Source: a virus
Reading direction: 5' to 3' (one strand)
Virus record (IMG/VR): IMGVR_UViG_3300045988_149975
Length of the DNA stretch: 64,000 bases
Shown here piece after piece: positions 8,792 to 63,798 of this stretch; within the stretch, counting starts at the first letter, position 1, and each line of letters starts with the position of its first letter. Under the pieces are notes generated by a model. It was given only the letters and a program-made list of their open reading frames with translations. It had not been told where the DNA came from and made no database searches. The position numbers and the translations under genes were made by a program.

Positions 8792-11671
8792 TTAACATTT
8801 ACTATAGCCACAATTATTACAATAAGCACACTTACCATCAGGAATAAGAGTATACTCACCACATTCAGGGCATTTCATTTTGCCATTATGAATATCATCC
8901 TTTACCTCATGAATAGCTTTCTGCGTTTCCTCTGTAAGTGCTTTTTCAAAAGTATTTTTAGCATCCTCTATAGCTGTCTTATTTTCTTGCAAGTCTTTAT
9001 AAATATCTCTAATTGCACTTGCAATACAAGAAGCGCAAGATTTAGAAATATCTTTTCTACCGCTACGCATTAAATAACTACAAGCAGGACAGTTAGCGTT
9101 GCTTAACTCATCAGCAATATCTAATGCTTTACCACCAAGCCTTAAAGCATAGCTTGTAAGTCTTGCAATAGTAGAAATATTAGCTTGACAGCCTGTTTCT
9201 GCACCTACAAAAACCTCAAAAATGTGATTATCTTTTACATTTACTGTTACATAAAAATTTCTTACACAAGCTGTATGGTAAACAAAAGTGCGCCCCCAAA
9301 GGGATTTCACTCCATTACGTTTAACAGGCTCAAGATTATCTAACTGTCTTGCTTGCATATCATCTACTGTAACAGGTTCTTTAATAATCTCAACTTTTGG
9401 CACATGATTTTTAACTTCTTTATTCTCTACATCAGCACGTTTTACACCATGGTCAGTACCAAGGATATTAATGCGTTTGCAGTTATCACGAAAAATAGTA
9501 ATACCCTTACAACCATTTGACCATGCCTGCAAATAAAGGTTAAAAATATCATCTACAGTTGCACTCTCTTTAAGATTAATAGTAGAAGAAATTGCATTAT
9601 CTACATAAGACTGCATAGTAGATTGTAAATCAACCCTATCCTTGGGGTCAATATCATAAGTATCTACAATATAAGGAAACTTTTCTTTAATCTGTTCAGC
9701 AGTAAGTTCATTGGGATTATAACCTCTAAATTTTAAAAGATTTTCCACTGCAAGCATATTAATATGGAAAGATTTACCTTCTTTTTCAAGAACATGAGTA
9801 GTTCTATCATAAGACACTTGATAGTATGGTTCTACACCACCACTTTCTCTAAAGAGCATTGAAATTGAACCGGTAGGTGCAATACTCAATAAAGTGCCAT
9901 TACGCATATTTTGAGATAAATCCTTTGCCACTCTTGAAGTAAATCTGTACTGAATATCATGTACCATACCACTTTTATCAAATTTTTCTTTGTCAAATTT
10001 ACCAAAACTACCCTTTTCTGCCCCTAATTTTGCAGAAGTGGCATAGGCAGTAGTCTGCATATTGCGCATAATAGATGCTATAAGTTCAATACTTTTTTGA
10101 CTGCCATATTTAATACCCATTGCTACAAACATATCTGCCATACCAAATATGCCTAAACCAATGCTACGCCAATCATCAATACATTTCCTATTCTTATCTA
10201 AAGGTTGAAGTTCATAACCATAATCAAGAATTTCATCTAATGCGGTTACAGCATTTTTAACTGTATCACAGAATCGCTCCATATTGAAATGCGCCGTATC
10301 AGTATAAGGATTATCTACGAAGTTATAAAGATTAATACTACCTAAATTACAAGCATTATACTCTGAACCTGCAAATTCACCACAATTCCCTGTCAAAACA
10401 CCATTGGCAATGAAGGTATGATTTTTAGGCTCATTCATACAATAAACAGTATCAACTACTTCTGCTTCTTCGATAGCTACAACGCTAATTTTAGGGCAGG
10501 CATAAGCTGTTACAATAAAATCAAGGTCATTATTAAAAACAGGATGTTTATACCAATCTAAAGTGTCACCAACTTTTAAATCTTTAGCTTCAACTCTGCC
10601 GACATCCCTCAATACCCATTTATGGTAAGGGGTACACTGAACAGTAGCACCATTAGAGAATTTAATCTTTAAAGTCTTTTGGTCATGCCCTGTTACTTTA
10701 GGAGTAACTTTGCTCCACTCATAACCATTCCAAACTTCTACCTCTTTACCTGCTAATTCCCCAATAGGTTTATACCCCTTTTTAGTAAGAATAAGGGTAT
10801 CACCAGTTACACAAGGGTTTGTAGTATCAATCCTATATTCATTAATAGGATAGCCACTCAATAAGTTACATTCTCTTACATTATCAATAAATAATGCCCC
10901 AGGCTCTCCCCAATCATACTGCGCTTCACAAAATTTCCTAAAGAAATCTCTTGCATTAATTTCTTTTTTAACCTCTTCACCATTTTCTTCATTTTTAAAG
11001 TGCAACTCAAAATTCTCATTACTAATTACACTTGTCATAAAATCATCAGTGAAACATATAGAAATGTTCGCACCCTGAATTTTATCATTATTCTGTTTAA
11101 TAGTTAAAAATTCTTCAATATCAGGATGGTCACAATTCAAGGAAATCAGAATTGCTGCCCTTCTTCCGTTATTTCCAATAACTTCACCAATTACATTATA
11201 GACATCCATGAAGGAAACTGCACCGCTTGAAGTCTTTGCAGAATTATTAACTTTAGCACCCTTTGGGCGAAGGTTACTCAAATTAATACCTGCTCCACCG
11301 CCAAAGCTAAAAATTCTTGCCATTTCCTTACCTACATCAAAAATAGATTCAATGTTATCTTTAGGTGAGGGAAGAATATAACAATTACTTGTTGTGGCTC
11401 TAAATTTTCCTTTACAACCTGCTGCATAAAGTGTTCTGCCCGCAGGTAAGAAAGTACCATCTATAATACTCTCTACCATAAAATCTTGTAATTCTTTTGT
11501 AGAAAAAATACTTGATACTCTTTTAATGAAAGCATTAAATCCTGCATCAAAACCTTCCTGTTCTACAATTTTTAACTCGTCATCGTGCATATATTTTTTC
11601 TTTATAATATTTTGCGGAATTTCATCATCCCACCATACTTTATACATATTTACATTACTAATTCTACCCAA
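8792..11671 (-). CDS. nrdJ: ribonucleotide reductase (probably class II, adenosylcobalamin-dependent, monomeric type) containing a mini-intein
   Basis: Active-site NPC-GE split as ...TTNP / CVTGDTLILT...FIANGVLTGN / CGEFAGSEYNACNLGSINL; no ATP cone; Cys-rich C-terminal zinc-ribbon tail. Confidence 0.75.
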   Translation of the reverse strand: MGRISNVNMYKVWWDDEIPQNIIKKKYMHDDELKIVEQEGFDAGFNAFIKRVSSIFSTKELQDFMVESIIDGTFLPAGRTLYAAGCKGKFRATTSNCYILPSPKDNIESIFDVGKEMARIFSFGGGAGINLSNLRPKGAKVNNSAKTSSGAVSFMDVYNVIGEVIGNNGRRAAILISLNCDHPDIEEFLTIKQNNDKIQGANISICFTDDFMTSVISNENFELHFKNEENGEEVKKEINARDFFRKFCEAQYDWGEPGALFIDNVRECNLLSGYPINEYRIDTTNPCVTGDTLILTKKGYKPIGELAGKEVEVWNGYEWSKVTPKVTGHDQKTLKIKFSNGATVQCTPYHKWVLRDVGRVEAKDLKVGDTLDWYKHPVFNNDLDFIVTAYACPKISVVAIEEAEVVDTVYCMNEPKNHTFIANGVLTGNCGEFAGSEYNACNLGSINLYNFVDNPYTDTAHFNMERFCDTVKNAVTALDEILDYGYELQPLDKNRKCIDDWRSIGLGIFGMADMFVAMGIKYGSQKSIELIASIMRNMQTTAYATSAKLGAEKGSFGKFDKEKFDKSGMVHDIQYRFTSRVAKDLSQNMRNGTLLSIAPTGSISMLFRESGGVEPYYQVSYDRTTHVLEKEGKSFHINMLAVENLLKFRGYNPNELTAEQIKEKFPYIVDTYDIDPKDRVDLQSTMQSYVDNAISSTINLKESATVDDIFNLYLQAWSNGCKGITIFRDNCKRINILGTDHGVKRADVENKEVKNHVPKVEIIKEPVTVDDMQARQLDNLEPVKRNGVKSLWGRTFVYHTACVRNFYVTVNVKDNHIFEVFVGAETGCQANISTIARLTSYALRLGGKALDIADELSNANCPACSYLMRSGRKDISKSCASCIASAIRDIYKDLQENKTAIEDAKNTFEKALTEETQKAIHEVKDDIHNGKMKCPECGEYTLIPDGKCAYCNNCGYSKC
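10385..10813 (-). mobile_element. mini-intein (about 143 aa, no endonuclease domain) inserted at the RNR catalytic Cys
   Basis: Begins CVTGDTLIL and ends ...GVLTGN, followed by +1 Cys of the C-extein CGEF; residues 287-429 of the ORF. Confidence 0.7.
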
Positions 11672-31748: not shown

Positions 31749-33148
31749 TTATGCCCCTAATTTTTCCACAATCTCATCTTTTGTAAAACCAAGGTTTTTA
31801 TAAAGACTCCGTGGATTTTCTACATATTCGTATTTTAAAATGGTAGTCTTACCATTTTCTTCCATTGTTTCATATTTAACTGTATCTGTATTCTTGCCTG
31901 CTTTTTCTACCTCACCTGCATAAATCCAAATATAATCATCAAATAATAGATTACCCCATAAAGGCTTCCAAACTTCCTCGTTGAAATTTTCTGCCATATA
32001 ATAGTAATCCTCTTTAGAACTTAATACTTTTGGTATACCTCTCATTAATAACTCAATCCTTTCTTTAACAGAATCTAATTTTATACTTTTACGAAAATTA
32101 TAGGTATTTGCCCACTTCATCCAACCTTCTATACTGGCTACCATACCTCTTGCATAGTCCAAATCTAAATCAGCAGTCTTTAATAGACTATCCAATTTTC
32201 TAAACCTGCGTTTTATCCTTTTTGCTGTACTCTTTCTTAATAAAACACAGTTGTTAGGAAATGTCCTATAACCAAGAAAGTCTACACCTTGCGTTATAGG
32301 AAATACATTACTTTTACTTAATAACAGGTTTAACTTATCATAAGCAAATACCTTCGCTTTTTCAGCTACCTCATGTAACTCCTTCTTATCATTACCGAAA
32401 ATTATAAAATCATCACAATACCTTATATATGCACTACATTTTAAATCATACTTTATATAAGTGTCTAATTCATTCATGTATAGATTACCAAACCACTGTG
32501 AAAGATAATTTCCAATAGGTACGCCCGCCTTTCTATGACCAAATTCCTCTACATATCTTTCAAGTTTTCCACGCATTATATCAGCATCTTTACGCCCTTC
32601 AAAATTCTTCAAATAACCTATATTAGCTTCTCTTGTTGCAAGGCTATCTATTATTATATCAAGAATACTTAATAAATCTTTATCTTTAATCTTTTTACGC
32701 AATATTATTTTCAATATTTCATGGTCAATATTTACATAAAATTGTGAAATATCAAGTTTAGCACAATACTTATACTTTCTTACATATTCAGAGCATTTTA
32801 TCATTCCCTTATGCTGCCCCTTACCTTTACGACAAGCATAACTATCATATATAAATAAACTATCCCAAATAGGCTCTAACACATTCATTATAGCATGATG
32901 TACTATTCTATCAGGATAATATGGAAGTACATAAATTAAACGCAATTTAGGCTCATACATTGAATAAATCCTATAAACGGAGTTCTTATAATTTCCATCC
33001 ATTAAATCTTTTTGTAATGATAATAGGTTAGCTTCCAAATTTTCTCTTACTTTAATAACCTCTGATAAATTTCCTTTACCTTTTCCTGCTTTTAATTCAG
33101 CAATTTTAAGATTTTCAATATCAATAATTCTATTCCAAAGATTTCCAT
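31749..33148 (-). CDS. diversity-generating retroelement (DGR) reverse transcriptase
   Basis: YIRYCDDFIIFG (YxDD); PIGNYLSQWFGNLYMNELD, the DGR-specific IGxxxSQ signature; N-terminal NLWNRIIDIENLKIAELKAGKGKGN. The conserved N-terminus extends upstream of the tracker start at 33038; see findings. Confidence 0.8.
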
Positions 33149-33397
33149 ATCTTCGTATTTGAAAAACACCCTCTCTATTAAAAAGTTTAACAAATTGGCA
33201 CTCTTTATAAAGAGTGCCAAAATGCTATTTAGGTATTTAGGTAAATTGATTTTCGCCTTAACTACTAACCCCTTTACCATCCTGTAATGTGTTTCTGCTT
33301 TCGCAGAGGATAGAGATTCAGCCGAAGGATTAGCTTTATACCTATTGTATGATACCTTCGTATCACTACAGCTACGCTCGCCGTTGTTAGAGTTCAC
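33092..33397 (-). CDS. doubtful ORF overlapping the TR and the RT 5' end (no convincing Avd features)
   Basis: 101-aa ORF; its C-terminal third overlaps the conserved RT N-terminus in another frame. Confidence 0.15.
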   Translation of the reverse strand: MNSNNGERSCSDTKVSYNRYKANPSAESLSSAKAETHYRMVKGLVVKAKINLPKYLNSILALFIKSANLLNFLIERVFFKYEDMEIFGIELLILKILKLLN

Positions 33398-33481
33398 ATT
33401 CGCTGAAGCATTATTGACATTAACTGAACGAGAACTGCAACTCGAACTGTTATTCCAGTTACTGCCGAGTTTCGCCTTTAT
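33362..33481 (-). repeat. DGR template repeat (TR)
   Basis: About 120 bp, near-identical to the VR except at roughly 25 positions. At every one of those positions the TR carries A on the minus (transcribed) strand. Confidence 0.75.
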
Positions 33482-33611
33482 AACCTCTACCCTTTTAGTT
33501 GCAACTATTTATATATATAAATTGGGGGTACGAGATGGTTGTCTACATTACCTCTCCAAGTTTATATCAACTTAAACACCACATTAACTTGAATTAATGG
33601 GCTACGCCAAC

Positions 33612-34673
33612 TCAATTCCCAAGTTTATGGAGCGGCTCACCACAGCCACGCCCGCCGCTGAAAGAGTCCACAAGCGCCGAAGCACCATTGACATCAACCG
33701 AACGAGAACCGCAACCCGAACCGCCACCCCAGAGACCGCCGAGCCTCGCCCTGTACAAAGTACCATAGCTTCTACCATAAGACTGGTCATCTACACCACT
33801 ATTATATACAGAATCATTCCAACCACTTGAACCGTTTACACCAACATCACTTGCCCATTGCCATAAGAAACCACAAGCATCTTCAAGCCCATAATTACTT
33901 ATCATTCTTCTGCCCGCTGTATCAACGTGTCCACCAGTTGTATTGGCATCTGTACTACCTTGTATATTAGTACCTTCATTACTTCCTTTTGCCGCCACCT
34001 GAAACTCATATCTCCACGGCAATCTTTTCTTTATATCAGCAAGTCTTTCTACAAACTGTTCACCATGAAATTTCTTTGTAGAAGCACCATCTGCTGTTGT
34101 TCCACCATTTACACTCACAAGTTTACTTCCATTCCACGAGTTTAAGTAAATGTCCATCCATATATCTACTTCAGGAATATAAACCATTCCTTCAGGTGAA
34201 CATTTTGGGCGATGAATTAAATCCCATACTGATTGTGGTAATATATCACCTGCTACATAACCACTTAATGTATGCCCGCTTATCGTACCCACATTTGTAC
34301 ATAAACAATGGAAACCACCTATTTTTCTACTATTATCTGCATTATAACCATTAGGTACAGTAGAATTTAAAGATAATACAAAATCTAATCCATTATTTTC
34401 TACTGCATACACATAAACATCTTTACCGTTTCTATTTGCCAAACTTAAAGACAATGTTTTATCCATATCAGTAGAGTATACATTATCATTTATTCTTAAA
34501 ACCATCCCCGCAGGTATTGTTACAGTAGTCTTATTTGTAGTCATTAAACTTTTTCTATTAAAATAAGTATCAATATACTTTGCCAAAATTTCTTCACTAA
34601 AATTTTCACCATCTATTAAAGAGTTTAAATATGCTCTAATTGTTTCTACCCTTAAATTATTTAATTTATCCAT
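33612..34673 (-). CDS. DGR target protein: tail fibre / receptor-binding protein with a C-type-lectin (FGE-like) fold VR at the C-terminus
   Basis: 353 aa; C-terminal ...YRARLGGLWGGGSGCGSRSVDVNGAS... is encoded by the VR; lies in the tail-fibre gene block. Confidence 0.7.
   Translation of the reverse strand: MDKLNNLRVETIRAYLNSLIDGENFSEEILAKYIDTYFNRKSLMTTNKTTVTIPAGMVLRINDNVYSTDMDKTLSLSLANRNGKDVYVYAVENNGLDFVLSLNSTVPNGYNADNSRKIGGFHCLCTNVGTISGHTLSGYVAGDILPQSVWDLIHRPKCSPEGMVYIPEVDIWMDIYLNSWNGSKLVSVNGGTTADGASTKKFHGEQFVERLADIKKRLPWRYEFQVAAKGSNEGTNIQGSTDANTTGGHVDTAGRRMISNYGLEDACGFLWQWASDVGVNGSSGWNDSVYNSGVDDQSYGRSYGTLYRARLGGLWGGGSGCGSRSVDVNGASALVDSFSGGRGCGEPLHKLGN
33636..33755 (-). repeat. DGR variable repeat (VR) at the 3' end of the target gene
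   Basis: Matches the TR 33362-33481. All mismatches are TR-A to VR-G/C/T on the coding strand; locally GC-rich. Confidence 0.75.
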
Positions 34674-55009: not shown

Positions 55010-55258
55010 TTAAAGAACTGCTAATGCTCCCTGTAAACGAAGATACTCTTTAATTTCAGGAATAACAGATACTTTCTCACCTTTATTGAAGAAATACCAT
55101 CTATCCCCATAATAAATTTTTAAATCCTCATTAGTAGCTACTTCTACTTTCTTTTCCACAGGGGCTTTTTTAGTTTCAACCTTGGTTTCAACTTCTACTG
55201 TTGGCATTGTTACTTCAATTGCTTTATCTTCTTTCTTAATTGCCATAATTTCCTCCAT
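55010..55258 (-). CDS. hypothetical protein
   Basis: 82-aa ORF. Confidence 0.35.
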   Translation of the reverse strand: MEEIMAIKKEDKAIEVTMPTVEVETKVETKKAPVEKKVEVATNEDLKIYYGDRWYFFNKGEKVSVIPEIKEYLRLQGALAVL

Positions 55259-55875
55259 TATTCATTAAATGTAGCTGTCGCAACTGATAATGTTAAAGTT
55301 ACATTATCATTCGTTTTAAGCTGTACAGTTACAGCCCTTGCAGTTGTAGAATCTGCACCTAAAAATACAACAGCAGTTTTATCAGAATCATCTATAGTAC
55401 GCCATTCTTGTAAACGTGAGGAGTACATTTGAATCGAAGTAGAACCTTTAGGTAATTCTACTGTAAATGGTAAATAATAACCATTCTGTTCATCTTCTTT
55501 ACTACTAAAATCTGTCCAACCTGTTATTTTTTTAAATGTACCAGTTACTACACCTGTTTCACCATATACAGGACTCTCTACTAAATCAGAAGTATTCTTT
55601 CCTAATAATGTAATAGTAGGTGCTTTAACTACAATTTTCCTTTCTACTGGCGGCTCACTACCACCATCAACTGCTTTTACAAAAGCACTACTACCTGCTT
55701 CAGCATAAAATACTTGTGAGGGTTTAACGCCTAATTTTGTGGCTACTTTATAAGGGTCTTGCTCCATATAAAACACCTCATTTGCTGTTACATTTTTACC
55801 TAATGCTTTTGCTAACTTTTGTGGAGATTGTTTTGCGTACAGTACATCATTTGCTGTTATACTCATGTTCAACAC
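55258..55875 (-). CDS. head-associated protein with a C-terminal Ig-like domain (decoration-like)
   Basis: 205 aa; C-terminal GTFKKITGWTDFSSKEDEQNGYYLPF...AVVFLGAD.. is paralogous to the major-tail extension domain. Confidence 0.45.
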   Translation of the reverse strand: MLNMSITANDVLYAKQSPQKLAKALGKNVTANEVFYMEQDPYKVATKLGVKPSQVFYAEAGSSAFVKAVDGGSEPPVERKIVVKAPTITLLGKNTSDLVESPVYGETGVVTGTFKKITGWTDFSSKEDEQNGYYLPFTVELPKGSTSIQMYSSRLQEWRTIDDSDKTAVVFLGADSTTARAVTVQLKTNDNVTLTLSVATATFNE

Positions 55876-55922
55876 TCCTAAATATAAATGGAAGGGAAAC
55901 CTAACGGTTTCCCTAAAATTAA

Positions 55923-56258
55923 TTACGCAGTTTCAATTATTACGCCATGTGTAGGATTAAGAACTGCTGTACCCCAAATGCCATACCAAGCAATCTTAAC
56001 TTCACGCCCAAAATCTTCAGTATCATCTGTACGAATTTCAGGGGCTAAAGATTCTGCAAGTGCATAATAATCTTCGCCAAAGATTACTGCCTGATATACG
56101 TTAGCACTGGAAGCACCTGCGGCTTTAAGTTCTGCTACATAGCCTAAATCGCTTTCAGCAGCAGCACCATTAGGCATAATGGTTGTTTCAATAAAACGAA
56201 CATCGTCAATTCTACCGATTTCCAATCTGTTACTATGGGCGGTAAATACCCATTTCAC
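55923..56258 (-). CDS. major capsid protein (HK97 fold), 3' exon
   Basis: ...AVIFGEDYYALAESLAPEIRT...KIAWYGIWGTAVLNPTHGVIIETA matches the HK97-family C-terminus. The tracker M is GTG; the exon probably begins 1-2 nt inside. Confidence 0.65.
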   Translation of the reverse strand: MKWVFTAHSNRLEIGRIDDVRFIETTIMPNGAAAESDLGYVAELKAAGASSANVYQAVIFGEDYYALAESLAPEIRTDDTEDFGREVKIAWYGIWGTAVLNPTHGVIIETA

Positions 56259-56358
56259 TTACTTTATGTAAGCGGGGGCGTACTTCTATGAGTGTCTTTA
56301 CACTCGACTGCCCCTCTTATGTTCACACATAAGGTCTGACTATCTCTTTACCCCTTTC

Positions 56359-57246
56359 TTATGTTCGAGGTATCTCGTGTATAGTCGATAGACTTTTTTC
56401 AGATAATTTATAACTCATTGATTTTGGTATAAATTCTTTTATGTAGTCGCAAAACTTTGTAAAACTTTTTGAAGGTATTCTTATCATCGGATAACCACAT
56501 TCAAGCTGAACATAGGTTTCAATTTTAATAATTTCATTTAAAGAATTGCTCAATAACTGACACTCCTCAATAGTAAAACAACAAGTTGCTATCTTACCCC
56601 AATTTCCTTTACCTTTACTACCATCATCTGCATACCATATAGCGATTGATAAAGGATTGAGCATTTCCTTAATGTTATTAGGAATAATCTTTGTTTTACC
56701 TTTATAGAACATTTCCCTTAACTGTTTTATATCTCCAAAGGCTTTTGTCCTTTTCCTAACCGATTGATAACCTTCTTTAGTTTTTCTATAATAACTACTG
56801 CTTATATCATTGCCAAAGAAACTTGCCTTATAGTTTAAGTAATCTTCTTGTTTAAGCGAATGACTTAAATAAAGTACCCTTCCATCAAGATAACCGTCAC
56901 CTAAAATGCTACCAATTACAACACTTCTTTGATTATCTGTTAAGTGCTTATAATCACTTTGTACAGCAGATATGCCATAATGTGTTAGCCATTTTGTAAC
57001 TGTACTATTCTTTACATTAAACTTTTCGCCGACATCTTTCTTCCTACCACCATTTTGAAAAACCTCTAATATCTCCTCTTTCGGTGGTATATAAGCAAAA
57101 TGTTCAAAAGTTCCTAACTTATACTCTTTAACAAGTCTTTTTATAACTTTTAAACTTACACTAAAATGTTTTGCAACTAATTTCTGACTTTTTAAGTCAT
57201 TATATACTTTTTGTAAATCTTCTTTTGCAATATAAATCTTTTTCAT
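56359..57246 (-). CDS. LAGLIDADG homing endonuclease (two-motif, intron-encoded), N-terminal HTH
   Basis: VIGSILGDGYL and SIAIWYADDGSKG motifs; its stop lies between P8 and P7' of the downstream intron core. Confidence 0.8.
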   Translation of the reverse strand: MKKIYIAKEDLQKVYNDLKSQKLVAKHFSVSLKVIKRLVKEYKLGTFEHFAYIPPKEEILEVFQNGGRKKDVGEKFNVKNSTVTKWLTHYGISAVQSDYKHLTDNQRSVVIGSILGDGYLDGRVLYLSHSLKQEDYLNYKASFFGNDISSSYYRKTKEGYQSVRKRTKAFGDIKQLREMFYKGKTKIIPNNIKEMLNPLSIAIWYADDGSKGKGNWGKIATCCFTIEECQLLSNSLNEIIKIETYVQLECGYPMIRIPSKSFTKFCDYIKEFIPKSMSYKLSEKSLSTIHEIPRT

Positions 57247-57614
57247 TATAAATTACCTTCCTTTAGTACGGTATTACCCCTCTGGGGTTCACTTTCTATA
57301 TACATAGTATTATAGGCTTTTTAAAGCCAACCGTTTAGCGAGATGCTTTGTACTTGTTTTTATTCAAGCACAACGGCAAAATCTACCGTTAAATAACTGT
57401 TCAGGCGCACCATAGTTGCTCGCATTACAGCACTATTACTTTCACCCACTATGGTAAGGGTTACTGACTAATATCTCTATTAGCGGGGCAACTGCTTCTC
57501 TAAAGTGTCTTTACACTTGAGTCACCCTCTTATGGTTTCCCATAAGGTTAGACTATCTCATCCCCCGATTTTTTACATCGGGGGCTTCGTCCATAGTCGT
57601 TGCAAGGGTATCAA

Positions 57615-58145
57615 TTAAACATATTCAAACCTATACGTTCCTAATAATACATTATTTCTTAACAATGCAGAAGTTATTGATGGGTATTTAAGATTGAGTT
57701 TCTCTGACGCTTCTCTCGTACTATTAAACTCAAACTTTTCTCCTGTTTTTATATTCTCACATTTAATTTTGCGACTTCTATGTTTTATACCATTTTCTCT
57801 CGCCGCTTTGCTATGTGCTTCTGTCATAACATTTATCAGACCATGTGCATAAGCGTGTCTAATATTATAACTTGAATCACACCATTCTAAATTCTCAACG
57901 TGGTTATTTAACTTGTTACCATCTATATGATTTACTTGCGGTAAATTATCAGGGTTAGGTATAAAATTCATTGCTACAAGCCTATGAATTTTCTTTGAAT
58001 GTTTACCATCCTTATCATATAAGTTTACATATAAATAACCGCCTTTGTTGACAGTTTGAACTAAAAACTTTTGTGTAAATGTGGAATATACCCTTCCATC
58101 ATCATAAATATAATAATTTTCAAAACCTTTAATTTTTCGTTTCAC
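57615..58145 (-). CDS. HNH homing endonuclease (NUMOD4-HNH), intron-encoded
   Basis: IPNPDNLPQVNHIDGNKLNNHVENLEW, near-identical motif block to ORF 23052..23642; followed at once by the intron P7-P8-P7'-P9. Confidence 0.8.
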   Translation of the reverse strand: MKRKIKGFENYYIYDDGRVYSTFTQKFLVQTVNKGGYLYVNLYDKDGKHSKKIHRLVAMNFIPNPDNLPQVNHIDGNKLNNHVENLEWCDSSYNIRHAYAHGLINVMTEAHSKAARENGIKHRSRKIKCENIKTGEKFEFNSTREASEKLNLKYPSITSALLRNNVLLGTYRFEYV

Positions 58146-58279
58146 TTACGTTACTCCTCTCTTTATGTTTAATCTTAACCTTCTCACAGGATTGGCATGA
58201 CTTTTCAGTTTTAGCTTTCCCTGTTTTCACGAAGTTTAATCGAGTACATTACTGTACAAGTGGACTAATGCTAATGGCT

Positions 58280-58972
58280 TTATGCCACTCTTTCAATCCA
58301 TTCAGGGCAATCTCTCAAATCACGGCTCTGATGAGGATGAACAAATGCGATATAATAACTACCATCAATTTTCGGTGCATTATTAGTAGAAAGAATTTCT
58401 ACTGCATCTTTAATAGTAGCTACTGTAAGGGTATTTACACCTGCTGCTAATTGATTACGCTGTGTAACTTTAGCACCGTCTTTCTGTCTACCAAATACTT
58501 TAGAAGTACCACTGCCACCTTTAACAGCTACATCACGCAGTTCCAGTTCAAGAGTAGTTACATAGTTTCTTGCTAACTGACGCATTGCAATTTCAAGTTC
58601 GTTTACAAAGGAGAAACGAATTGCAGCTTCAGTAATCATTACAGCAGTACCATGTTCTACTACTTTAATGGATTTAGTGCTGGAACTTAAAGTCTGTGTT
58701 TTAATGTGCTTACCTTCTTCAAGAGGTGAAGATACTTTTAAATTATTATAAGTAAGCATTTTAATTTCATTACCAGGATTTACAGTTAAATCCGTTTTTC
58801 TTGCCGCAAAATCATAAAAGCGATACACAGGCTCTGACAGGAAAAGAATTTCTCTGCTCAAAACAGGTGCTAAAGAATTTACTAACTGTACGGCAGTACC
58901 ACTATCCAGTTCAGTATCAGTAGTCTGAATAATAGTATTGATTTCATTGCCAAGCGGCCATTTTGTTGCCAT
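58280..58972 (-). CDS. major capsid protein (HK97 fold), 5' exon
   Basis: ...AAIRFSFVNELEIAMRQLARNYVTT...SYYIAFVHPHQSRDLRD... matches the central part of HK97-family capsid proteins; ends in a stop at the intron boundary. Confidence 0.65.
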   Translation of the reverse strand: MATKWPLGNEINTIIQTTDTELDSGTAVQLVNSLAPVLSREILFLSEPVYRFYDFAARKTDLTVNPGNEIKMLTYNNLKVSSPLEEGKHIKTQTLSSSTKSIKVVEHGTAVMITEAAIRFSFVNELEIAMRQLARNYVTTLELELRDVAVKGGSGTSKVFGRQKDGAKVTQRNQLAAGVNTLTVATIKDAVEILSTNNAPKIDGSYYIAFVHPHQSRDLRDCPEWIERVA

Positions 58973-58989
58973 TATTTAATCACTCCTAA

Positions 58990-59640
58990 TTATCTTTTAA
59001 ATCTTCTTGCCTCACGATATTCCTCATCAGACATTGAATTTAACTTACTAACAAGGTCATTGATTGATGTAGGCATTTGTCTTCTTCCTTGTTTCGGTGG
59101 TTTCGGTAAAGGCTCTCTATTTTTACCATACTTTTCTTTAACAGAATCTTGTAGGGCTTTTATCTCTGTATAAGAAGCATCAATTTCCTCTTTTGTACTA
59201 CCTTTTACCAAATTCTTAAAGTCATCATCAATATCTGACAGCTTACTTTCCCTGTAAGCCTTTAACTCTTCGGCATTTTTATAATCAGCAAAATCTTTTT
59301 CTGATTTCGCTAATTTAGCTTTATAATCTTCTAATTCCTTTTTGAGATTTTCAATCTCTGCTGTTGCTTCCATTTTCCCCTCATCCTTTGCCTTTGTAAT
59401 TTTTTCATTCAAATCGGAAAGTTCTTTCTCTTTTGCTTTAATGGTTTTTTCTAATTCATTGATTTTAAGAAAATTACCATTTGCATCTTTTACCTTGTTT
59501 GCTACCTCATCTTTCCATTTCTGAACCTCATCTTTCAGCTTTTGAATTTCAGGGTACAATTTATCCCTTTCCTGTTTTCTTGCTTTTTCTATTTCTGCTT
59601 GAATATCCACATTTGAATTAGTATCAATGTTATCTGCCAT
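58990..59640 (-). CDS. scaffolding protein
   Basis: 216 aa; highly charged, predicted coiled coil; between portal and capsid. Confidence 0.6.
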   Translation of the reverse strand: MADNIDTNSNVDIQAEIEKARKQERDKLYPEIQKLKDEVQKWKDEVANKVKDANGNFLKINELEKTIKAKEKELSDLNEKITKAKDEGKMEATAEIENLKKELEDYKAKLAKSEKDFADYKNAEELKAYRESKLSDIDDDFKNLVKGSTKEEIDASYTEIKALQDSVKEKYGKNREPLPKPPKQGRRQMPTSINDLVSKLNSMSDEEYREARRFKR

Positions 59641-61386: not shown

Positions 61387-63798
61387 TCACCACCTTATCC
61401 TATGATTTCTTCTGCCTACAAATATATTCCTCTTTGTAGTCTGTATAAACTCATTGTTATCTACTACTTCAACTTCCCCAACATCATGCTTTAATCCCCA
61501 TACCATTAAGGCAGCACTAAATGGGTAATCATCATGTTTATTTCTTTCTTTAGGGGCAGCCACTACAAGTTTATCGCCCCTATAATCCTTTGTAAGTTCA
61601 AGACATTGCTCTTGAAATTTCCTATACTCAATAGTATCTTGTGCGCTCGAACTTGATGGATAGTGAAAACATTTATTATTAAGGTATGCACTAAAATTTT
61701 TCATTAACATACTCTTACTTGCAGGGGTAAATACAAAAGGTATCACTGGAAAATCTACATTAGCTGCTAATCTATCAGCTACTGGACTTCCTACACCGCT
61801 TCCATCTATAACACATAACTTGATATTAAATCTATTCAAATAATCCTTTACTTTATAAAACTGCTCTTCATAGTTGTCACCAACTATTTCCAACCAATCT
61901 ATTATCTTTATGTCATAAAGTACATAATCCTCTGCATCATACTCTGTTGCCTTTTCTAATACCACAGGACTTTCATAATTCGGAATACCTATTGTTACTA
62001 CTGTACTATCTTGTGATTTACCAACATCAATACCTGCTATGCAAACTTGATCTTTACAATAATCCATCCTATCTAATGTAGAATCTGCAACAGGGTCAGT
62101 AGTAAATAACTCTCCGTCAATGAACATACCAAACTGAAATACCCATTTCAAGCAGTTATGACTTGCAAGCCCCTCTGCTATAAAGGTATGTGTTGATGTT
62201 CTAATAGGAATTACTTTTCTATTACCGACAAATTTAACGCTTGTAACGTGAGGGTGTATATCCCTACCTAATTCACCATTTGAACATCTTAAAGTGCCCA
62301 AAGTATTAACATCAAGATTTTCAAGTAACCTTTTAGGTCTTACCATTCCTAAAAATTTGAGGGTTTCCCTCTTACCACCTGTTATTATGAGTCTATAAAC
62401 ATCATCTTGGTTTCTTTCAGCATATATAGGACTTGTATAATAACTATACTCAAATCCATATTTATCTAAACACTCTTTAACGTGCTTGAGCATTGCATTA
62501 TCTCTTTGTGCAAAACAAAGTTGTTGCAATCGCCCATCTGCGTGTCCTACATTACCTTCACCGTCAAAAGCAGCAGCTAAATAACCTAAATCATAATCAC
62601 TTTTTGGCATTTCCCATTTATTCAAAATTTTATATGCCCTATCAGTAAGTTTGAGGTCTTTAGTTTTTCTCCAACGTGTCAGTCTACCAGGTGTCATTAC
62701 AAGCCACTGATGCTCCTCCGAACAAGTAACTTTAGTACCATCCTCAAAAGTTACCTCATAACAAGGTCTTTCAATCTCACCTACATCTTCTACAATAGCT
62801 TCTCTGTATTTACGCTGTCCATATTTACCAGGTTTTTCCTCATCAAAACCTAATAATTTGTCGCCAACTTTAATAGAATCTGCTCTTACCCATCTTAAAT
62901 CTGCTGTAAGAATTTCCGTTTCAGGTGCAACACAGTAGTTCATTTCAAATTCCACACTGTTTTCACCCATTATCTTTTTAGCAGCTTCTACTGTTTTAGC
63001 GTATTTAGGATTATATTTAATAATCGTTTCATAGTTATACTCAAAATGATTTCTCTTTTTCTTGCCATTTTCATATTCTTTTTTATTTAATTCAATAGCA
63101 TCATAAAAAAAGTTTTTCTTAATTGACGGCGTACCAATAAGAATTTTAGTACCATTATAGAATGATACAGTAGGAAATATGGATTTCCTGTATTTATAAT
63201 TACTAATATCCTGTGCTTCATCACAAACATATAAATGGTATGAACCACCTTCAATGTTTGAACCGTCACTTGCTGAAAAACAAGTTATGGAAGATTTAAC
63301 ACCTAAATTATTAAATACAATAGTTACTCTCTCACCATTAAAAGTATCTTTAGTAATATTAAATTCATCACTTTCTAATATCTCTATTGCTCTTTTTGAT
63401 GATAAAAAATCTTTAATATTATTAAAGATAATCCTCGCCTGCGCCAGTGTTGGCGCAAATACGCCCATCATAATACCATTTTTAAACGGCTGTAAACGTG
63501 TATCATCTGCAAATAATGGCATATTAGCAAATACAGGTAGTATTACCATTAAACCTGATAATGTGGCTGATACTGTAAAACTTTTACCACTCTGTCGGGA
63601 CATAAGAGAAGTTATAGTGTCAGGGTCATTTGAAAGTACACCTTCGATAATTCTCCTACTAAATTGTGCTTGATGTGGAAAGAACTTTCTACCAGTCAAC
63701 ATTTCACAAAAAATCTGTATCTTACGAGTTAGTTCAGAAGTTTTAAGTGTTCTTCCTGTATAAGTAATAATATCACCACCTACATAACAAAAAACCAC
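61387..63798 (-). CDS. terminase large subunit containing a full-length intein
   Basis: Walker A SRQSGKS, Walker B HLYVCDEAQD, C-terminal nuclease domain. An intein lies between EFEMNY and CLKWVFQF. The true start is probably downstream of the tracker GTG, which sits inside a hairpin. Confidence 0.85.
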   Translation of the reverse strand: MVFCYVGGDIITYTGRTLKTSELTRKIQIFCEMLTGRKFFPHQAQFSRRIIEGVLSNDPDTITSLMSRQSGKSFTVSATLSGLMVILPVFANMPLFADDTRLQPFKNGIMMGVFAPTLAQARIIFNNIKDFLSSKRAIEILESDEFNITKDTFNGERVTIVFNNLGVKSSITCFSASDGSNIEGGSYHLYVCDEAQDISNYKYRKSIFPTVSFYNGTKILIGTPSIKKNFFYDAIELNKKEYENGKKKRNHFEYNYETIIKYNPKYAKTVEAAKKIMGENSVEFEMNYCVAPETEILTADLRWVRADSIKVGDKLLGFDEEKPGKYGQRKYREAIVEDVGEIERPCYEVTFEDGTKVTCSEEHQWLVMTPGRLTRWRKTKDLKLTDRAYKILNKWEMPKSDYDLGYLAAAFDGEGNVGHADGRLQQLCFAQRDNAMLKHVKECLDKYGFEYSYYTSPIYAERNQDDVYRLIITGGKRETLKFLGMVRPKRLLENLDVNTLGTLRCSNGELGRDIHPHVTSVKFVGNRKVIPIRTSTHTFIAEGLASHNCLKWVFQFGMFIDGELFTTDPVADSTLDRMDYCKDQVCIAGIDVGKSQDSTVVTIGIPNYESPVVLEKATEYDAEDYVLYDIKIIDWLEIVGDNYEEQFYKVKDYLNRFNIKLCVIDGSGVGSPVADRLAANVDFPVIPFVFTPASKSMLMKNFSAYLNNKCFHYPSSSSAQDTIEYRKFQEQCLELTKDYRGDKLVVAAPKERNKHDDYPFSAALMVWGLKHDVGEVEVVDNNEFIQTTKRNIFVGRRNHRIRW
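62155..62934 (-). mobile_element. intein (260 aa) with a LAGLIDADG homing-endonuclease domain, in the terminase ATPase domain
   Basis: CVAPETEILT N-terminal splicing block; YLAAAFDGEGNV LAGLIDADG motif; C-terminal THTFIAEGLASHN, then Cys+1. Confidence 0.8.

Follow-up and report, generated by a model that had tools for sequence, protein, structure and literature searches.

The window analysed here is the whole 64,000-nucleotide (nt) stretch of IMG/VR virus record IMGVR_UViG_3300045988_149975. Positions 58972 to 55923 of its minus strand hold a putative major capsid gene of the N4-gp56 family, in which two capsid open reading frames (ORFs) are separated by two ORFs for predicted homing endonucleases:

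58972..58280, minus strand: upstream capsid ORF, 230 amino acids (aa), with a Pfam Phage_capsid_4 match
58145..57615, minus strand: predicted HNH homing endonuclease ORF, 176 aa, GTG start, with Pfam HNH_3 and NUMOD4 matches and a match to I-HmuI
57246..56359, minus strand: predicted LAGLIDADG homing endonuclease ORF, 295 aa, ATG start, with a Pfam LAGLIDADG_2 match and a match to I-SceI
56258..55923, minus strand: downstream capsid ORF, 111 aa, GTG start, from alignment with homologues

The sequence-only reading of this region proposed a capsid gene split by two group I introns with HNH and LAGLIDADG endonucleases. The intron boundaries, the guide sequences, the covarying core and the endonuclease homologies agree with that proposal, and we hold with high confidence that two mobile group I introns, with 43 nt between them, interrupt this N4-gp56/HK97-fold major capsid gene. 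The two introns are related, as had been stated; the spacing of ~100 nt given for them does not hold.

The capsid similarity noticed earlier in both outer ORFs is borne out, in the upstream ORF by the Phage_capsid_4 match and in the downstream ORF, which had no match when searched alone against Pfam, by an alignment with the C-terminal 99 residues of full-length homologues. A trial spliced protein used as the query returned ~1600 homologues, many of which are 338-339 aa long and 77-82% identical. An intronless allele in one relative (L004; L numbers denote loci of relatives) encodes a protein 95% identical to the window capsid. Alignment with the spliced window protein shows that the intronless homologues are colinear with it and run gap-free through ...D(D/C)P.WI-NASNYGAPEQLFNG-EIGRIDDVRF..., in which the hyphens stand at the exon borders. 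Therefore, the two outer ORFs and a middle exon of 43 nt between them belong to one capsid gene. The 338-339-aa homologues span all the pieces rather than aligning to one ORF only. According to the protein alignment, the junction between exons 1 and 2 falls inside codon 226 and that between exons 2 and 3 after codon 240; the exact boundaries of the exons and introns are as follows:

58972..58296, minus strand: capsid exon 1, 677 nt, from the tblastn exon map, the junctions against intronless alleles and the protein alignment
58295..57428, minus strand: intron 1, group I, at site A, 868 nt, from comparison with L004, L001 and L003
57427..57385, minus strand: capsid exon 2, 43 nt, from junction comparison with intronless alleles and the protein alignment
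57384..56223, minus strand: intron 2, group I, at site B, 1162 nt, from comparison with L004, L009 and L003
56222..55923, minus strand: capsid exon 3, 300 nt, from the tblastn exon map, the junctions and the protein alignment

Exon 1 comprises codons 1-225 and the first 2 nt of codon 226, and its 3' end reads ...UGGAU. Exon 2 supplies the last nt of codon 226 and codons 227-240, encodes NASNYGAPEQLFNG and ends in ...AACGGU. Exon 3 comprises codons 241-339 and the stop codon and begins GAAAUCGG (EIGRIDDVRFIETT...); the first 12 codons of the downstream ORF (56258..56223, 36 nt) are intron 2 RNA. A candidate exon 1/2 junction at ...EWI-CCNASN... was ruled out by the alignment with intronless homologues, the true junction lying 5 nt downstream of it, just past the G at 57428. 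The joined exons measure 1020 nt, keep the frame and encode a 339-aa protein. Residues 32-339 of this protein match TIGR04387 (capsid_maj_N4) over profile positions 8-323 of 324 with 142 bits (cut-off 60), and the Phage_capsid_4 score rises from 27.2 bits with exon 1 alone to 44.2 bits, in a single stretch, with the spliced protein. From these profile matches, the spliced product is predicted to be an N4-gp56 family major capsid protein with the HK97 fold. Among isolates, the best match of the protein comes from Bacillus phage BCD7 (major head protein, 51%), and a megablast search of the 3.1-kb capsid region against phage genomes gave no match; the window is without a close sequenced isolate. 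For this phage group, gene callers list the capsid as a truncated protein of 229-252 aa and an orphan ORF, and known splice junctions recover the real 339-aa capsid protein from such mis-annotated pieces.

Every intron examined, in the window and in relatives and at all four insertion sites described below, is preceded by a T and has a G as its last base. Intron 1 begins UGAAAG and ends ...GCUG, and intron 2 begins AGAUUUU and ends ...GAUUG. The exon frames read into the introns for 4 and 6 codons and then stop. Close to the 5' end of each intron lies a guide that pairs with both flanking exons:

58271..58261, minus strand: internal guide sequence of intron 1
57383..57372, minus strand: internal guide sequence of intron 2

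In intron 1, P10 joins GCAUUA (58271..58266) to the 6 nt at the 5' end of exon 2, UAAUGC, and P1 joins GUCCA (58265..58261) to the final 5 nt of exon 1, UGGAU, with a U-G wobble at the splice site. This guide is identical in the four site-A introns checked (A_W, A_L002, A_L009 and A_L019). In intron 2, P10 consists of 6 bp between GAUUUU (57383..57378) and GAAAUC of exon 3, and P1 is formed by GCCGUU (57377..57372) with AACGGU of exon 2. The P1 and P10 pairings are contiguous in both introns. L018 has AAUGGU at the corresponding exon end and GCCAUU in its guide, a compensatory difference from the window (exon C to U, guide G to A). The P1 loop of the site-A introns also holds an extra hairpin (58289..58273, minus strand, in the window), the stem of which covaries between the window and its equivalents in L002 and L009 (UGGC/GCCA, UGUGCAUA/UAUGCACA and GUAGC/GCUAC). 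The UAA that ends the read-through from exon 1 is located in the loop of this hairpin in the window and L009 and at the top of its stem in L002.

The remaining RNA elements of the two introns are centred on three regions:

57598..57529, minus strand: catalytic core of intron 1, from anchored extraction, covariation, the minimum-free-energy (MFE) fold and a partial Rfam match
57527..57444, minus strand: peripheral 3' domain of intron 1 (P9.1, P9.2 and P9.3), from extraction and the MFE fold
56386..56316, minus strand: catalytic core of intron 2, from anchored extraction, covariation, the MFE fold and a partial Rfam match

The strands are ordered P3, P4-P5(-P6), P7 5', P3', P8, P7 3' and P9 in both introns, giving a P3/P7 pseudoknot. 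Both cores contain the P7 helix GACUAU/AUAGUC, the P8 hairpin and the P9 helix with a GNRA loop that the sequence-only reading had described. P7 is formed by 57598..57593 with 57556..57551 in intron 1 and by 56386..56381 with 56343..56338 in intron 2. The core of intron 1 further consists of P3' ACGAAG, P8 CCCCCGAU/AUCGGGGG, J8/7 and P9 CUUAUGG-GAAA-CCAUAAG, and that of intron 2 of P3' CGAGAU, P8 ACCUC/GGGGU and P9 CUUAUGU-GUGA-ACAUAAG, so that the GNRA loops are GAAA and GUGA, respectively. P4 is ACAGG/CCUGU in intron 1, ACGGU/ACCGU in intron 2 and UCGGU/ACCGA in L010. In the peripheral domain of intron 1, P9.1 (GGGUGAC/GUUGCCC) encloses the hairpin AAGUGU-AAAG-ACACUU and is followed by P9.2 and P9.3, the names of these 3' helices being our own labels; compensatory changes among relatives are visible in this domain. 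The J8/7-P7' stretch (A/U)GAGAUAGUC resembles what we take to be the classical S element, and ..CGACUAU.. presumably corresponds in the same way to the R element.

Unconstrained MFE folding of the non-coding parts recovers P7, P8, P9, P9.1, P9.2 and P9.3 in both introns, together with P1, the extension hairpin, P2 and P4/P5 in intron 1 and P2, P5, P5a and P5b in intron 2. A motif scan of both strands of the whole window found the P7'/P9-GNRA arrangement only at these two places. The 3' domains of the two introns are 64% identical (112/176), and the central 55 nt from J8/7 to P9.1a are 82% identical (45/55); the ~75% identity reported earlier for the cores is a fair middle figure. The compensatory changes reported in P9 amount to one pair within the window (G-C vs. 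U-A), with many others among relatives. P7.1/P7.2 insertions are typical of IA2 phage introns, the subgroup to which the introns of Staphylococcus phage Twort belong. The helices of the window introns are spaced so tightly (P7 to P3', 2-3 nt; P3' to P8, 0 nt; P8 to P7', 5-6 nt) that they leave no room for P7.1/P7.2. A separate Rfam match, to 'throat-1' (RF03110; 14.5 bits, E = 0.077), covers P7-P9.2 of intron 1 (57478..57640, minus strand) and is probably due to chance; if it is not, features of a group I-like 3' domain may also be present in the throat-1 motif.

Both endonuclease ORFs noticed earlier between the capsid parts show homology to known homing endonucleases, and both start 3' of the P6 5' strand. 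The HNH ORF is located in the P6 loop, and the core of intron 1 begins 16 nt past its stop codon, in accordance with the distance of at most 20 nt that had been given for each ORF. That distance does not apply to intron 2, in which the last 9 codons and the stop of the LAGLIDADG ORF overlap P7 5', P3' and the 5' side of P8, and only the P7 3' strand lies past the stop, by 16 nt. The HNH ORF has a Shine-Dalgarno sequence, AGGAG, 8 nt upstream of its start. Its Pfam matches score 30.2 bits for HNH_3 (cut-off 24.8) and 30.4 bits for NUMOD4 (cut-off 23.4), it also contains an I-HmuI NUMOD-like domain, and its residues 4-175 match I-HmuI (PDB 1U3E) with E = 7.1e-16. The LAGLIDADG ORF, with the Shine-Dalgarno sequence AAGGAAGG, is laid out as an N-terminal helix-turn-helix region followed by a two-motif I-SceI-like nuclease domain, and the motifs appear in the translation as ...SILGDGYL... 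and ...IWYADDGSK.... It matches LAGLIDADG_2 over profile positions 1-168 of 168 (110 bits, E = 1.5e-31), and its nuclease domain matches I-SceI (PDB 1R7M) with E = 2.6e-14. By homology, the product of the intron 1 ORF is predicted to be an I-HmuI-type HNH homing endonuclease and that of the intron 2 ORF a monomeric I-SceI-like LAGLIDADG homing endonuclease.

Covariation was analysed in P3, P7, P8, P9 and P9.1, which were taken from 15 distinct introns by fixed offsets from conserved anchors. Standard pairs fill 97.2% of the 435 cells, compared with 75.4% in shuffles (0/500 reach the observed value), and sliding the partners by 1-3 columns lowers the pairing to 37-44%. The pairs vary on both sides in 18 of 29 cases, and L9 is always GNRA in the 15 introns. 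The P3 variants include CUUCGU/ACGAAG, CAACGU/ACGUUG, UAACGU/ACGUUA, AUCUCG/CGAGAU, GCUACU/AGUAGC and (G)UUGCC/GGCAA(A). A MAFFT alignment of ORF-less introns from sites A and D placed the variable hairpins wrongly and did not enter the counts. Several points weigh against the reading of the insertions as two group I introns. The anchored extraction uses family-specific offsets and leans towards the structure, and the 15 introns represent only four lineages, so the cells are not independent and the counts overstate the events. P4 requires a bulge or a mismatch in some site-A and site-D relatives, and P6 of intron 2 yielded no convincing helix, just a 3-bp ACU/AGU candidate. The Rfam group I model proposed earlier as a check (RF00028, Intron_gpI; gathering score 50 bits) gave zero matches, both with the whole window at the gathering threshold and with 55700..59200 at E<=10. 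Pieces of ~200 nt gave partial matches, all of them below the gathering score: 20.0 bits (E = 2.7e-3) for the 5' half of intron 1 (P1-P6), 24.8 bits (E = 1.2e-4) for its 3' half (P7-P9) and 24.7 bits (E = 1.2e-4) for the 3' part of intron 2. These matches align the P/Q (P4) and R/S (P7) elements, and the low scores are provisionally attributed to the 0.5-0.9-kb ORFs between P6 and P7, which the model would not span. Finally, splicing itself is predicted from the sequence rather than read from RNA.

Rfam scores below gathering would also agree with decayed, splicing-dead introns in a capsid pseudogene, either of a defective phage or of a mis-assembled contig, and the sequence is uncultivated. 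However, no core helix is broken, the terminal G and the guides are in place, and the two endonuclease frames, like those of all three exons, remain open and are conserved. The genes for the portal, scaffold and terminase nearby are likewise intact, and the architecture with introns at sites A and B recurs in L002, an independent assembly from a different sample. Compared with the nearest relative, the changes are compensatory. Intron 2 differs from L018 at 8 of 302 ribozyme nt, and 5/5 helix differences are compensated (P9 U-A to C-G, P9.1 C-G to U-A and the change of guide G to A with exon C to U), whereas the ORF-only part differs at 67 of 860 nt. Thus, the RNA structure is under purifying selection, tighter than that on the endonuclease gene. 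We regard decay or mis-assembly as very improbable.

The pieces could instead be translated separately and assemble without splicing, free-standing endonuclease genes having split the capsid gene. The exon 1 ORF does have its own start and stop, the downstream ORF has a GTG start, and free-standing HNH genes are common in phages (PMC3706429). However, the 14-codon middle piece (57427..57385) has neither a start codon nor a ribosome-binding site, yet is strongly conserved (NASNYGAPEQLFNG). The insertion boundaries conform to the U/G rules, the guides form P1 and P10 with the exons on either side, and 300 non-coding nt per insertion are conserved and covary as a group I core. This explanation appears marginally less probable again than decay. 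Inteins or group II introns are of negligible probability: two putative inteins do occur elsewhere in the window (terminase and ribonucleotide reductase), but the stops 4 and 6 codons past the exon ends and the location of the endonuclease ORFs in separate frames with their own starts make protein splicing impossible, and the insertions contain neither a reverse transcriptase/maturase ORF nor group II boundary motifs, group I being the only Rfam intron family matched.

The mobility of the two group I introns was assessed in relatives with interrupted capsid genes, which were traced from shortened homologue matches to their contigs and through a scan of IMG/VR. Exon maps and junctions place four insertion sites within 109 nt of the capsid coding sequence:

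Site D, after codon 213: L017, L018 (= L012) and L087; LAGLIDADG, 202-210 aa
Site A, in codon 226: window, L002, L009 and L011 (= L019); HNH
Site B, after codon 240: window, L001, L002, L005-L008, L010 and L018; LAGLIDADG, 287-295 aa
Site C, in codon 250: L003, L026-L028 and L087; LAGLIDADG, 264-268 aa
Introns of relatives at sites D, C or B: L003, 5749-6810; L017, 4640-5550; L018, 4640-5549 and 5631-6793
Introns of relatives at sites D or C: L087, 4631-5522 and 5632-6689; L026, 4740-5797

The site combinations observed are A+B (window and L002), D+B (L018) and D+C (L087); D+A, B+C and A+C were absent from the 22 fetched loci with a split or partial capsid match, some of which are the same contig twice. 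Presence/absence polymorphism is found among capsids with 93-96% identical proteins, which have no intron in L004, one at C in L003, one at D in L017 and two at D+B in L018, compared with A+B in the window. In the set of 80 IMG/VR loci, all 7 interrupted genes fall within the 12 loci at least 58% identical to the window, and none of the more distant relatives in the set is interrupted. The differences in occupancy between near-identical capsid genes indicate recent mobility, and elements that are actively homing would be expected to show this pattern.

Identity between the ribozymes is 73-87% within a site and 44-59% between sites, and all share one scaffold; the three LAGLIDADG lineages are mutually 27-32% identical. 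One ribozyme scaffold may have colonised the four sites within 109 nt by changing its guide and its endonuclease cargo (one HNH, three LAGLIDADG), a plausible but tentative proposal. A specific closeness of the site-A ribozymes to those of site D, as after a swap of cargo, was considered; site-A ribozymes are 53-59% identical to those of site D and 51-57% to those of site B, a gap too small to decide. A pattern scan of IMG/VR with the shared J8/7-P9-P9.1a core found only 2 loci, both of them capsid genes of the same phage group. Outside the capsid genes, the 35-39-nt J8/7-P7'-P9 element of intron 1 has blastn matches of 89-91% identity in Streptococcus and Staphylococcus phages. In many Streptococcus phage genomes the match falls in an unannotated stretch (e.g. 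KY705258.1 1455-1489 and MH892362.1 1936-1973), and the Staphylococcus matches (Staphylococcus phage PV037055.1 114730-114764) adjoin an HNH gene. These matches are probably unannotated group I introns.

The proposed mechanism combines splicing and homing. The late pre-mRNA would fold into two ribozymes. In each, the guide would form P1 with the last nucleotides of the upstream exon, including the U-G wobble at the splice site, and P10 with the first nucleotides of the downstream exon. Each intron would then excise itself via two guanosine-dependent transesterifications, leaving the 1020-nt frame of the 339-aa capsid protein. The predicted spliced junctions are ...GAATGGAT joined to TAATGCGAGC... 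and ...TTTAACGGT joined to GAAATCGGT... (UGGAU to UAAUGC and AACGGU to GAAAUC). The P6 loop of each intron would harbour a separately translated endonuclease gene with its own ribosome-binding site, giving an I-HmuI-like HNH nickase from intron 1 and an I-SceI-like LAGLIDADG enzyme from intron 2. In a mixed infection, the enzymes would cleave capsid alleles that have no intron, at the unoccupied insertion site or close to it, and repair off the intron-bearing genome would copy the intron in (homing). The activity of the endonucleases, their target sites and homing are likewise predictions.

Phage capsid introns, phage genes with several introns and genes with several insertion sites are already known, and what this case adds is a four-site hot spot with one scaffold and exchangeable cargo. 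The major capsid gene of mycobacteriophage LittleE carries a group I intron, the splicing of which was proven by RT-PCR (reverse transcription PCR) and protein sequencing (Pope et al. 2013, PMC3706429), and a capsid-gene group I intron in lactococcal phage Tuc2009 is cited in the same article. As in LittleE, the window has group I-type introns in a capsid gene, with U at the exon end, G at the intron end and a LAGLIDADG gene, that are absent in close relatives. LittleE differs in its single intron, in an endonuclease ORF on the opposite strand and in an unrelated capsid family and host, whereas the window has two introns, both with sense-strand endonuclease ORFs, that are known from sequence alone.

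The orf142 gene of Staphylococcus phage Twort contains three group I introns (Landthaler & Shub 1999 PNAS, cited in PMC6669764) and resembles the window capsid gene in having several group I introns and short internal exons in one phage gene. The host gene and the ribozymes differ, the window introns being without room for P7.1/P7.2. The DNA polymerase intron of Bacillus phages SPO1/SP82 encodes I-HmuI/I-HmuII (Landthaler, Lau & Shub 2004, cited in PMC3706429; 1U3E). The two cases share an intron-borne HNH enzyme, full-length homology to I-HmuI and a phage of Gram-positive-like lineage; the target gene is a capsid gene here and a DNA polymerase gene there, and nicking is a prediction in the window. 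In nrdE of the Bacillus cereus group, three alternative group I intron sites occur among related strains (PMC2248736). Both there and here a conserved stretch of an essential gene is a hot spot with occupancy that varies between close relatives, whereas the four sites here lie within 109 nt of a structural gene and hold one related scaffold with an HNH gene or one of three diverged LAGLIDADG genes.

The current understanding of group I introns is unchanged by these findings. The capsid protein is probably the most abundant late protein, so two serial ribozymes in its gene must splice efficiently, and the 43-nt internal exon makes the gene a natural system in which to test the order of splicing and the skipping of exons. 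Should the colonisation of the four sites by one scaffold be true, they would form a natural system for the retargeting of group I introns to neighbouring sites and could show whether neighbouring introns cooperate or compete, for example through marker exclusion between co-infecting gut phages. Four sites with varied cargo and rapid gain and loss, together with two putative inteins in the same genome, make this a compact case of selfish-element traffic in uncultivated phages.

The capsid region is flanked by two further ORFs in the ORF list:

59640..58990, minus strand: scaffold-like ORF, at one flank of the capsid region
55875..55258, minus strand: 205-aa ORF, at the other flank

Nearly all ORFs of at least 90 aa in the whole window, including every long one, are on the minus strand, and the window has no tRNA genes. 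Downstream of the structural module come the genes for replication (family A DNA polymerase, DnaB-like and SF2 helicases). The ORF of the terminase large subunit (61387..63798, minus strand) measures 803 aa, compared with 526-543 aa in relatives, and has LAGLIDADG_3 (aa 401-476) and Intein_splicing (aa 343-548) matches between Terminase_6N and Terminase_6C, which indicates an intein with a homing endonuclease. The 959-aa ORF of the ribonucleotide reductase large subunit (8792..11671, minus strand) has an Intein_splicing match at aa 294-427 inside the barrel domain, and this insert is probably a mini-intein. In the region 31749..34673 (minus strand), a reverse transcriptase ORF (31749..33038) adjoins an Mtd-like ORF (33612..34673), and a 114-nt intergenic repeat (33363-33476) is 77% identical to the C-terminal end of the Mtd-like ORF (33637-33750). 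The region appears to be a diversity-generating retroelement, the repeats being consistent with a pair of template and variable repeats. Relatives of the capsid gene occur in bins of metagenome-assembled genomes (MAGs) of Clostridia, Eubacteriales and Mogibacterium, a weak hint that the host may belong to the gut Clostridia.

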